Below, piece after piece: positions 15,935 to 16,049 of a DNA stretch of 24,000 bases (positions within the stretch are counted from its first letter, which is position 1; each line of letters starts with the position of its first letter). The translations under genes and the position numbers were made by a program. This stretch comes from Legionella sp. W05-934-2 (GTDB taxonomy: Bacteria; Pseudomonadota; Gammaproteobacteria; Legionellales; Legionellaceae): assembly GCF_964199965.1 (NCBI RefSeq), contig NZ_CAXMZT010000004.1:198213-222212 (forward strand), written 5' to 3'. The notes beneath the pieces are model-generated. The model ran no database searches. It saw nothing but the letters and a program-made list of their open reading frames with translations, and was not told the origin of the DNA.

Positions 15935-15974
15935 CGGCTGCGTCACTGAGGATTTATCCGCAGTGACGCAGCCG
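15935..15974. repeat. Hairpin H1, copy 1: perfect 14-bp inverted repeat CGGCTGCGTCACTG / CAGTGACGCAGCCG, 12-nt spacer
   Basis: Read directly. A third half-site, CTGCGTAA, follows at 15979-15986. The same core CTGCGTCACTG recurs at 22850-22881. Confidence 0.9.
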
Positions 15975-16018
15975 AAGGACTGCGTAATTTTTCAATAAAT
16001 TCAATATATTATTCCTGA

Positions 16019-16049
16019 TTGAGCAATCGCGTGCAACGCGATTGCTCAA
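16019..16049. repeat. Hairpin H2, copy 1: perfect 14-bp inverted repeat TTGAGCAATCGCGT / ACGCGATTGCTCAA, 3-nt loop
   Basis: Read directly. The apex GCG-TGCAA-CGC matches the apex of the hairpin at 22928-22962. Confidence 0.9.

Follow-up and report, generated by a model that had tools for sequence, protein, structure and literature searches.

What purpose is served by two strong hairpins that stand together, a fixed distance apart, in front of a pair of recombinase-like genes in Legionella? The question arises from a 24,000-nt stretch of the genome of Legionella sp. W05-934-2 (contig NZ_CAXMZT010000004.1, positions 198,213 to 222,212; hereafter the window, numbered from its first nucleotide), in which such a two-hairpin element occurs upstream of the genes intA and intB and again downstream of them. 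Each copy consists of a first hairpin (H1), a weaker AT hairpin (Hmid) and a second strong hairpin (H2); coordinates are collected in Table 1. Judging from conservation and gene association, we have considerable confidence that H1–Hmid–H2 is a cognate site of some kind for the IntB protein family, and we favour the narrower reading, which we hold to be probable, that it serves as the transfer origin (oriT) for a MOB_M-type relaxase module made up of IntB and IntA in Legionella islands and plasmids with a GI-type (MPF_G) type IV secretion system (T4SS). From its gene content, the window is a Legionella-type integrative conjugative element (ICE) with a T4SS of this kind.

H1 of copy 1 is a perfect 14-bp inverted repeat (IR), CGGCTGCGTCACTG (15935-15948) and CAGTGACGCAGCCG (15961-15974), inside which four further pairs (GGAT/ATCC) bring the total to 18 pairs around a 2-nt loop. 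Its centre lies at 15954.5 and that of H2 at 16034, and we thus reproduced the original prediction of two perfect 14-bp IRs with centres 79.5 nt apart, the second closing on a 3-nt loop. The claim of a second copy was confirmed as well: the H1-H2 distance is nearly equal there (79 nt), and the H2 stem has been kept by compensatory changes, three of them plus one G·T pair separating the two copies around a common apex, GCGnnCAACGCG. H1 of copy 2 has a single mismatch, which falls on the outermost base of the 11-nt core. A third half-site claimed for copy 1 is real, its coordinates having been one base off: CTGCGTAA, which repeats the start of the H1 5' arm, lies at 15980-15987 and not at 15979-15986. 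Copy 1 does lie between divergent genes, as had been stated (DUF3644 at 14907-15875 on the minus strand, intA from 16533 on the plus strand); copy 2 lies between convergent ones (orf471 ending at 22635, plus; a TraA fragment ending at 23136, minus), and its right flank is common to L. norrlandica (L064; loci are cited by our own numbers where they need to be told apart). The core 11-mer CTGCGTCACTG, allowing at most one mismatch, was counted 4 times in the window, where the expectation is 0.09, and 0 of 100 shuffles came to this number; the folding z-scores of the two unit regions range from -7.7 to -9.8, an equally good fold appearing in 0 of 200 shuffles. Because of this excess, these z-scores and the cross-genus hairpin test against shuffles described below, a chance palindrome is excluded.

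Relatives were sought with a pattern scan (CTGCGTCACTG-N4-16-CAGTGACGCAG) over one genome per species, which returned at least 118 stretches; family counts rest on the matches listed. About 100 matches fall in Legionella, Tatlockia, Coxiellaceae, Caedibacter and Cysteiniphilum, and 67 non-identical Legionellales loci share a fixed geometry relative to H1, with Hmid at +10 to +32, H2 at +44 to +80, a promoter motif (CTTGnnn...TTTGMTAAnnT, in more than 60 loci) at +96/97 and the hammerhead core CTGAnGA (in about 60 loci) at +139/140. A linker motif, WTAAAWTCAAYnnAYT, is conserved 3' of Hmid. intA starts a median of 538 nt downstream of H1, mostly 502-584 nt, in 68 of the 78 assessable Legionellales sites listed (87%). 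Wherever the locus extends far enough, TraD and AcaB are encoded upstream, on the same strand, and ardA is as a rule found downstream; the typical arrangement is TraD–AcaB–(cargo)–H1–Hmid–H2–promoter–hammerhead–RAGATH-13–intA–intB–ardA/ssb.

The element has sharp limits. The loci become homologous at the left edge of H1, the DNA further left being variable cargo, and in intact units that lack the promoter and hammerhead (copy 2 of the window, L012_3495, L064, L104, L008 and L089) the homology stops at the right edge of H2. Because homology starts and ends at these two edges, H1–Hmid–H2 is, on alignment, a discrete unit of about 115 bp. L001_4938 is another promoter-less copy, outside the six in which the homology end was resolved.

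A selfish dispersed repeat resembling repetitive extragenic palindromes (REPs) or miniature inverted-repeat transposable elements could also yield recurring hairpins, and the same 11-nt arms do occur in GC-rich actinobacteria, in multiple or tandem copies with no int gene nearby (20 listed matches). Legionellales genomes, by comparison, hold 1-3 copies each among the matches listed, with 87% of assessable copies at a fixed distance from intA, and on this gene association we reject a REP-like repeat for Legionellales; we attach a nearly negligible probability to the unit being such a repeat or a chance palindrome. The original prediction had proposed a motif search in related genomes, wary of a REP-like repeat unconnected with mobile elements; in Legionellales the scan found the connection. 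The actinobacterial palindromes (in Occultella, Intrasporangium, Pedococcus, Agromyces and others; L005, L021, L022, L025, L026, L036, L041, L043, L047, L049, L067 and L075, and further L080, L090, L103, L108, L114 and L115) combine these arms with a 15-nt spacer, are sometimes tandem, and look like a separate, unrelated REP-like family.

The hairpins of the unit are conserved in different ways. H1 arms are invariant across loci, which is partly a consequence of the search pattern. The spacer between the 11-nt arms measures 8-16 nt in 67 canonical loci (6 nt in Caedibacter and Cysteiniphilum), varies in sequence and nearly always adds pairs, leaving loops of 2-9 nt; the H1 loop is thus free to vary in both length and sequence, the arms being held constant. 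H2 is conserved as a structure. Among 49 distinct H2 sequences both sides have changed in 13 of 16 pairs, 88% of cells are paired compared with 33-44% in slid-partner controls, and the covariation score of 0.439, against 0.13 in shuffles, was reached by 0 of 500 shuffles. Its inner stem varies freely, yet pairs up to a 3-5-nt loop in every case, and the stems of H1 and H2 alike are near-perfect, with no conserved bulges. Because pairing is continuous to the loop and the inner stem is free to vary, H2 fits an extruded hairpin better than a palindromic operator; and because only structure is conserved in H2 and Hmid, the two probably act as extruded hairpins, either as a cruciform in supercoiled DNA or in folded single-stranded DNA (ssDNA). 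Mismatches of the G·T and A·C kinds, scored symmetrically over unique sequences, number 23:4 in H2, 4:4 in H1 and 2:4 in Hmid, with the H2 bias favouring the int-sense strand; the events being few and related, we rejected a strand assignment from this ratio, which is a hint at most.

The fixed distance from the hairpins to the putative -35 and -10 motifs in more than 60 loci invites another explanation, in which H1 and H2 are upstream operator or architectural sites for the adjacent promoter, serving intAB autoregulation or an ICE regulator. Relaxases do often control their own expression from an oriT overlapping the promoter, as in pIGRK (PMC8152469). At least six intact units occur without a promoter, however, and a promoter with hammerhead occurs without H1 or H2 at 18286-18382, upstream of orf86-ardA; the freely varying yet always paired inner stem of H2 is also unlike an operator. 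We find this explanation decidedly improbable, and note that a regulatory role could coexist with oriT function.

The proteins encoded next to the unit point to what might recognise it. IntB matches PF12835 at 35.1 bits (cutoff 23) as well as PF12834, and possesses the full R-K-H-R-H-Y set, with the motifs FGLRREE, WTKGGR, HGLRHAYAQ and ELGHxR…Y conserved. In IntA the first catalytic Arg, the Lys and the His residues are replaced (FGLT for FGLRREE, ATNS for TKGG, the HxxRH motif missing), and the Tyr varies among members of the IntA family. Because IntA has lost the catalytic residues that IntB keeps, the pair is, by its motifs, one enzyme and one degenerate paralogue; of the "two recombinases" originally described, IntB (PF12834 plus PF12835) is catalytically intact and IntA is not. 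The two genes overlap by 8 nt if intB starts at the ATG at 17329, the start of most annotated homologues. Searches of NCBIfam and PDB sequences with IntB found nothing. PF12835 has been used as a signature of MpsA-like relaxases (PMC10484663), and a 2026 preprint associates MOB_M with MPF_G ICEs (10.64898/2026.01.13.699239). A relaxase had also been named in the window; this is the C-terminal helicase part of a TraA_Ti-type protein, and because nearly all other loci with the element lack it, it is not H1's partner. A reading of copy 2 as the oriT of this neighbouring TraA_Ti relaxase was tried and dropped as giving no information: homologues of the fragment are mostly truncated remnants, and the one in L. 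spiritensis sits in a decayed island without H1.

The strongest evidence that H1 is a cognate site of the IntB family, and that this family works in DNA transfer, is that the two co-occur across genera. IntB homologues are present in 193 plasmid records. We compared ten contexts with an IntB homologue of at least 35% identity (Legionella, Francisella halioticida, Acinetobacter baumannii, A. indicus, Agrobacterium, Neorhizobium, pFNL10, pF243, p250 and Glaesserella pD74), and in all ten the longest hairpin upstream of the homologue gene has 14-18 pairs, lies 450-1525 nt upstream and bears the arm core YGTCAYT; its length was reached by 0-1 of 100 shuffles. Hairpins with YGTCAYT arms stand upstream of IntB homologues in seven genera (Legionella, Francisella, Acinetobacter, Agrobacterium, Neorhizobium, Avibacterium and Glaesserella), the core in F. 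halioticida being identical to that of the window, and at the more distant homologues of Burkholderia and Aeromonas the long hairpins, which lie 320-360 nt upstream, are different ones and GC-rich.

Several of these replicons pair the IntB homologue with conjugation genes. The Acinetobacter plasmids are arranged int–orf79–type IV coupling protein (T4CP). A Neorhizobium plasmid has its T4CP gene about 1 kb downstream of int; these T4CP-bearing plasmids have no recognised relaxase and are typed non-mobilizable. In plasmid pPC1000_1 a full MPF_G T4SS is accompanied by an H1 variant, a hammerhead, RAGATH-13, intAB, ssb and DUF932, and no relaxase is recognisable with Pfam. Plasmids called "non-mobilizable" by MOB-suite that hold both a PF12834/PF12835 gene and an H1-like hairpin include L128 and L133 (Acinetobacter), L136 (Neorhizobium), L119 and L135 (Francisella), L121 and L127; these plasmids may be mobilisable ones that have been mis-typed.

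These features converge on a probable transfer origin. The unit is intergenic and upstream of a relaxase-like gene (in 68 of the 78 listed sites, and likewise in six other genera); it is compact, at about 115 bp with three hairpins and sharp homology boundaries; and TraD, AcaB and an MPF_G T4SS lie upstream of it, the related T4CP plasmids having no recognised relaxase and the window itself having a TraA_Ti fragment in addition. H1 would be recognised by IntB, on this reading a relaxase of MOB_M/MpsA type, whose gene lies about 540 nt downstream, and IntA, a catalytically dead paralogue, would be an accessory DNA-binding factor, as MpsB is for MpsA in Salmonella genomic island 1 (SGI1). The extruded H2 and Hmid could serve to position the protein, or as marks for initiation and termination. 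On one side of the site is the coupling-protein gene (traD–acaB) and on the other an operon of leading-region type (intAB, ardA, ssb, DUF932), which would be read from the promoter immediately 3' of H2. Copy 2, a promoter-less unit of another subfamily, would be either a further oriT or the remains of a recombination event at a unit's 3' edge. Of the functions initially suggested (protein binding, recombination, oriT or activity in ssDNA), the specific protein-recognition site tied to the adjacent recombinase-like genes survives, with oriT favoured, and the ssDNA promoter does not.

Several points weigh against an oriT. We infer binding, nicking and mobilisation at the unit from sequence alone, and likewise where and on which strand the nick falls and what copy 2 does. 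The suggested link of IntB to MpsA, MobK and TcpM is drawn from a common Pfam family and two papers, and IntB, with a full recombinase active site and a core-binding (CB) domain, could simply be a recombinase of the ordinary kind. The links that tyrosine recombinases form are 3'-phosphotyrosyl, which sits awkwardly with the piloting of a 5' end by a MOB_M enzyme. A dimeric protein that binds double-stranded DNA and co-evolves with a palindromic site could mimic the H2 covariation, and the bias of G·T over A·C is weak, phylogenetically non-independent and confined to H2. Part of a TraA_Ti (MOBQ) relaxase adjoins copy 2 in the window. Finally, in L. pneumophila Corby the episomal form became more abundant when one integrase of the pair was deleted, according to Wee 2013, which cites Lautner 2013 for this result. 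A raised episomal form is no obvious relaxase phenotype. The Corby island LpcGI-2 reportedly conjugates and is said to have three episomal forms.

The same deletion phenotype, an altered level of the episomal form (Wee 2013), would suit the main rival explanation, under which H1 is the core site at which IntB, with IntA, acts as a true site-specific recombinase in multimer resolution, formation of alternative episomes, or capture and excision of segments. IntB has the complete catalytic set and an N-terminal domain of core-binding type, homology breaks exactly at unit edges, and direct units bracket the intA–intB…ardA segment both in the window (6.9 kb apart) and in an unrelated ICE in the metagenome-assembled genome CAWASG010000002.1 (9.47 kb apart; L027:332-364, L037:1804-1837); tandem units also flank a single DUF1780 gene in L012. 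Yet the arm spacer of 8-16 nt is usually self-complementary, whereas canonical core sites have a fixed overlap of 6-8 bp, and symmetric arms would face an asymmetric protein pair with one catalytically dead partner. The two window copies differ throughout H2 and Hmid and are therefore not products of recent recombination with one another. IntB-family genes moreover stand beside T4CP genes in relaxase-less plasmids, and PF12835 and MOB_M are tied to conjugation (PMC10484663; preprint 10.64898/2026.01.13.699239). We hold a recombinase core site to be unlikely; a loxP-, dif- or att-type core in particular is disfavoured by the variable spacer, the fixed 6-8-bp overlap being absent.

Returning to the oriT reading, the bracketing of the anti-defence "leading" segment intAB–ardA–AbiE–orf471 by two direct units would allow a variant in which IntB, as a structure-specific relaxase reading an extruded hairpin, starts at one unit and finishes at the next, releasing or transferring a small ssDNA circle, a scheme we regard as quite doubtful. 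In it, the circle, with relaxase and anti-restriction genes only, could serve as a vanguard that travels ahead of the ICE or independently of it; were this true, the same chemistry would also explain junctions at unit edges and the single-gene "cassettes" found between units.

Closely spaced units were seen in two further settings: in L. pneumophila fraseri (L012, 3495-4365) tandem units flank one gene for DUF1780, a putative endonuclease, and in L. parisiensis (L001, 4938-5133) a pair of units is separated by 163 nt in the neighbourhood of a P4-type integrase, intAB being absent within 3 kb. Units without intAB nearby occur in small islands that have either a P4-type integrase or a DUF927 helicase (L001, L012, L089), and these are possible hitchers; the tandem units of L012 and L001 may be oriT-only hitchers or cassette-like structures. 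About 55 nt to the right of H2 in copy 2, at ~23019-23050 on the minus strand, a promoter-like remnant TTGTCC…TTTTGATAAC is aimed back at the unit; its spacing of 13 or 22 nt is unfit for a functional promoter, it is also present in L. norrlandica (L064), and an inversion or rearrangement at the H2 edge may have left it behind.

Since the unit heads an operon of leading-region type (ardA, ssb, DUF932) and its hairpins are conserved in structure, with a weak sense-strand bias of G·T over A·C in H2, it could instead act in the transferred single strand, as an sso- or ssi-like priming site or as a Frpo-like ssDNA promoter for early leading-region expression. Frpo and ssi elements share with it the position at the head of a leading region with ardA and ssb and the dependence on hairpins. 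In Frpo, however, the -35 and -10 lie inside the stem, whereas here they lie outside the hairpins and have no complementary partner; a Frpo-type promoter was rejected on this ground, the motifs at 16069-16097 being 3' of H2 and unpaired in folds. Synthesis primed on the sense strand at H1 or H2 would run away from the genes, and the conservation of H1 and its co-variation with IntB relatedness across genera point to a protein of the element itself and not to the host primase or RNA polymerase. We judge an ssDNA role of this sort very improbable.

A function in RNA, as a terminator or 3' stabiliser of upstream transcripts or as an antisense RNA, would account for strong hairpins and for the position of copy 2 between convergent genes, and the SGI1 mobilisation module does need a processed RNA. 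A terminator-like structure is in fact present in the window-type subfamily, where the H1 3' arm and CTGCGTAA can form a small alternative hairpin (15966-15985) followed by a T-run within 15966-15995. H1 and H2 themselves, on the other hand, have a 5' T-run and a 3' A-run on both strands and so have no U-tract after the stem, and the DNA upstream is variable cargo in either orientation, so that no conserved promoter would transcribe the unit. An Rfam search over H1 and H2 gave chance-level microRNA and small RNA (sRNA) matches only, none at the gathering score. The original statement that the element is no terminator therefore holds: the scanner called neither H1 nor H2, and the one T-run belongs to the small, subfamily-specific hairpin. 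An RNA element is accordingly a possibility to which we give barely any credence.

The arm repeat itself is conserved in the window-type subfamily only, and GGCTGC[GA] stands at the matching place in L003, L004, L017, L023, L031, L070, L097, L100, L104 and L116. A partial arm-like TGCGTA(A) recurs near an H1-type hairpin in the window (15980-15987), in F. halioticida (L126, ~1690) and in Acinetobacter (L128, ~690 and ~800), and a motif RTAAAAYC is found 3' of the hairpin in Legionella, F. halioticida and pFNL10/pF243. Both are candidate nick or single-arm sites, their positions being inconsistent between genera.

An oriT beside a tyrosine-recombinase-like relaxase belongs to an already known kind of system, and a close parallel is SGI1, whose mobilisation depends on MpsA, an "atypical relaxase" of the tyrosine recombinase family, and MpsB, acting at a 125-bp oriT with three IRs beside the genes (Kiss 2019 PMC6414798), and in which a processed sRNA (sgm-sRNA) encoded between oriT and mpsA is essential (Nagy 2021 PMC9299015). 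Both systems have a site of about 115-125 bp with three IRs adjoining a gene of the tyrosine recombinase family, a catalytic protein with a non-catalytic, DNA-binding partner, a structured and processed RNA encoded between the site and the relaxase gene, an AcaB-type regulator, an association with a T4SS and the common PF12835 signature (PMC10484663). They differ in that IntB has its own N-terminal core-binding domain (PF12834); in that IntA is a full-length degenerate paralogue, compared with a small CB-like protein in SGI1; in that the Legionella site lies upstream of the promoter, whereas that of SGI1 lies inside the primary transcript; in the use of a hammerhead ribozyme for RNA processing in Legionella; and in the host element, a self-transmissible MPF_G ICE or plasmid as against an integrative mobilisable element.

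The oriTs of pIGRK and pCW3 resemble the unit, as does that of SGI1, in size and layout. MobK nicks the pIGRK oriT, where three IR pairs stand immediately before the mobK promoter, with demonstrated dependence on Tyr179, and the pCW3 oriT, served by TcpM, measures 151 bp (both Nowak 2021 PMC8152469). Here too the oriT is intergenic, just upstream of the relaxase promoter, with several IR pairs and a relaxase that resembles a tyrosine recombinase, and small plasmids with rep and int only recall pFNL10, pF243 and p250 with their IntB homologues and H1-like hairpins. Unlike IntB, however, MobK and TcpM have no CB domain, and they are reported to be not significantly similar to each other or to MpsA (PMC8152469); the pIGRK and pCW3 IRs are short and imperfect, whereas H1 is a perfect hairpin of 13-18 bp; and nicking has been demonstrated for MobK, while the role of IntB is read from comparison of sequences.

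Among MOB_M/MPF_G ICEs, the predicted oriT_rM regions of a Rocha-lab preprint (10.64898/2026.01.13.699239) likewise occupy the first large intergenic region upstream of the MOB_M gene, some elements, as in ICEclc, having two oriT copies, and oriT-only hitchers exist. That study covers six species, none of them Legionella, gives regions and not delimited sites, and in its searched text describes neither the H1 motif nor a discrete H1–H2 unit. ICEclc, with its dual oriTs, differs from Legionella in using a MOBH TraI. Integron attC sites also combine a structure-conserved, sequence-variable hairpin with a tyrosine recombinase, and units can flank single genes, as in L012. An attC site, however, is imperfect, with R''/L''–L'/R' boxes and essential extrahelical bases, and stands beside IntI and a cassette array, whereas H2 is near-perfect, H1 is conserved in sequence and the neighbours are PF12834/PF12835 proteins with no IntI-type integrase and no array. 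We rejected attC on these two grounds, the near-perfect stems without conserved bulges and the non-IntI neighbours.

We found no description of this member of the oriT systems served by tyrosine-recombinase-like relaxases. What is new is the site in Legionella GI-type islands (LGIs), its delimitation, the cross-genus YGTCAYT hairpin and the degenerate IntA partner. As reported in 2013, neither a relaxase nor an oriT was identifiable in LGIs; Wee 2013 found no relaxase, and a tandem integrase pair adjoining 13 of 14 T4SS clusters. IntB, with IntA, and a delimited 115-bp site are now candidates for relaxase and oriT. The YGTCAYT hairpin accompanies PF12834/PF12835 proteins across Gamma- and Alphaproteobacteria, including small plasmids typed non-mobilisable. 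Should the oriT reading be right, the MOB_M branch would gain an oriT defined by sequence and structure, an aid to the biochemistry of nicking and DNA piloting; a motif search could find oriT-only hitchers and mis-typed plasmids; and hammerhead and RAGATH-13 RNAs would be tied to a conjugative DNA-processing module, paralleling the sRNA-dependent SGI1.

Table 1. Positions of the hairpin units, RNA motifs and genes in the window
Feature	Coordinates	Strand	Description
H1, copy 1	15935-15974	+	Sequence-conserved hairpin/palindrome; core arms CTGCGTCACTG / CAGTGACGCAG
Arm-repeat region	15966-15995	+	Partial repeat of H1 5' arm, CTGCGTAA at 15980-15987
Hmid, copy 1	15986-16010	+	Weak AT hairpin, AATTTTTCAATAAATT in the window; TTGATTTTACnnnGTAAAATCAA in the main subfamily
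H2, copy 1	16019-16049	+	Perfect 14-bp stem, 3-nt loop; 3' boundary of the discrete unit; structure-conserved, sequence-variable
H1, copy 2	22848-22884	+	13-bp arms 22850-22862 / 22870-22882, 7-nt loop
Hmid, copy 2	22891-22919	+	AT hairpin ending in TTAAAATCAAAAG
H2, copy 2	22928-22962	+	TTTGTTCAAAGGCGCTCAACGCGTTTGAACAAA subfamily, as in L052, L064, L096; unit end, no promoter or hammerhead beyond
Putative sigma70 promoter	16069-16097	+	TTGTCC-N17-TAATGT, TG at -15/-14; conserved in >60 loci
Type I hammerhead	16106-16158	+	Hammerhead_1, 17.1 bits, E 0.085, full length, sub-threshold; outside the unit
RAGATH-13 RNA motif	16420-16514	+	83.7 bits, gathering score 80; outside the unit
intA	16533-17336	+	PF12834 protein, catalytically degenerate IntB paralogue
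intB	17329-18228	+	PF12834+PF12835 tyrosine-recombinase-like protein, complete catalytic set
Second module, 3' of intB stop	18229-18382		27-bp AT-rich palindrome (18229-18282), extended -10 promoter TGTTATAAT, hammerhead HH9 24.4 bits

The rest of the window follows the family order with additions. Pfam matches to Plasmid_RAQPRD, DUF3487, DUF2895, DUF3438, TraC_F_IV, TraU and TraG_N mark the T4SS, after which come a TraD-like coupling protein and an AcaB/PFL_4669-like protein. The DUF3644 cargo gene (minus strand), copy 1, the hammerhead, RAGATH-13, intA, intB, the second hammerhead, orf86 and ardA follow, and beyond ardA there are an AbiEi/AbiEii pair, a secreted-looking ORF of 471 aa (orf471), copy 2 and the C-terminal helicase part of the TraA_Ti-type protein. 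Megablast of the 14.4-24 kb portion against plasmids gave nothing beyond one 64-bp match. The TraA_Ti-like open reading frame (23136-24000, minus strand) runs off the end of the window, with 286 aa listed from a TTG at 23996; its database homologues are mostly short or truncated, and the gene may be a remnant.

The promoter adjoins the unit without being part of it and would drive a transcript of hammerhead, RAGATH-13 and intAB; it falls below the threshold of a consensus promoter scanner and is proposed from conservation only. The hammerhead starts within about 10 nt of the promoter motif, a layout kept at fixed offset in about 60 loci, and its predicted cleavage falls after C16152; because of this closeness to a promoter-like motif, it would strip the leader with its 5'-triphosphate from the intAB transcript. 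Hammerheads upstream of ardA in Legionella were reported by Perreault 2011 (PMC3088659). RAGATH-13, of Rfam type "ribozyme", appears to be the 5' leader of the relaxase-like operon, and it is also found directly upstream of intA in plasmid pPC1000_1 (L120, 2379-2470). The 50 nt downstream of the two hammerhead cleavage sites in the window (16159-16208 and 18367-18416) are 90% identical and contain a GCCAC…GTGGC hairpin with loop TCATTCCCTAA that is conserved across loci; a weak RAGATH-32 match lies in the second of these copies (18367-18416), and the segment, at the new 5'-OH end, may be an RNA motif so far undescribed.

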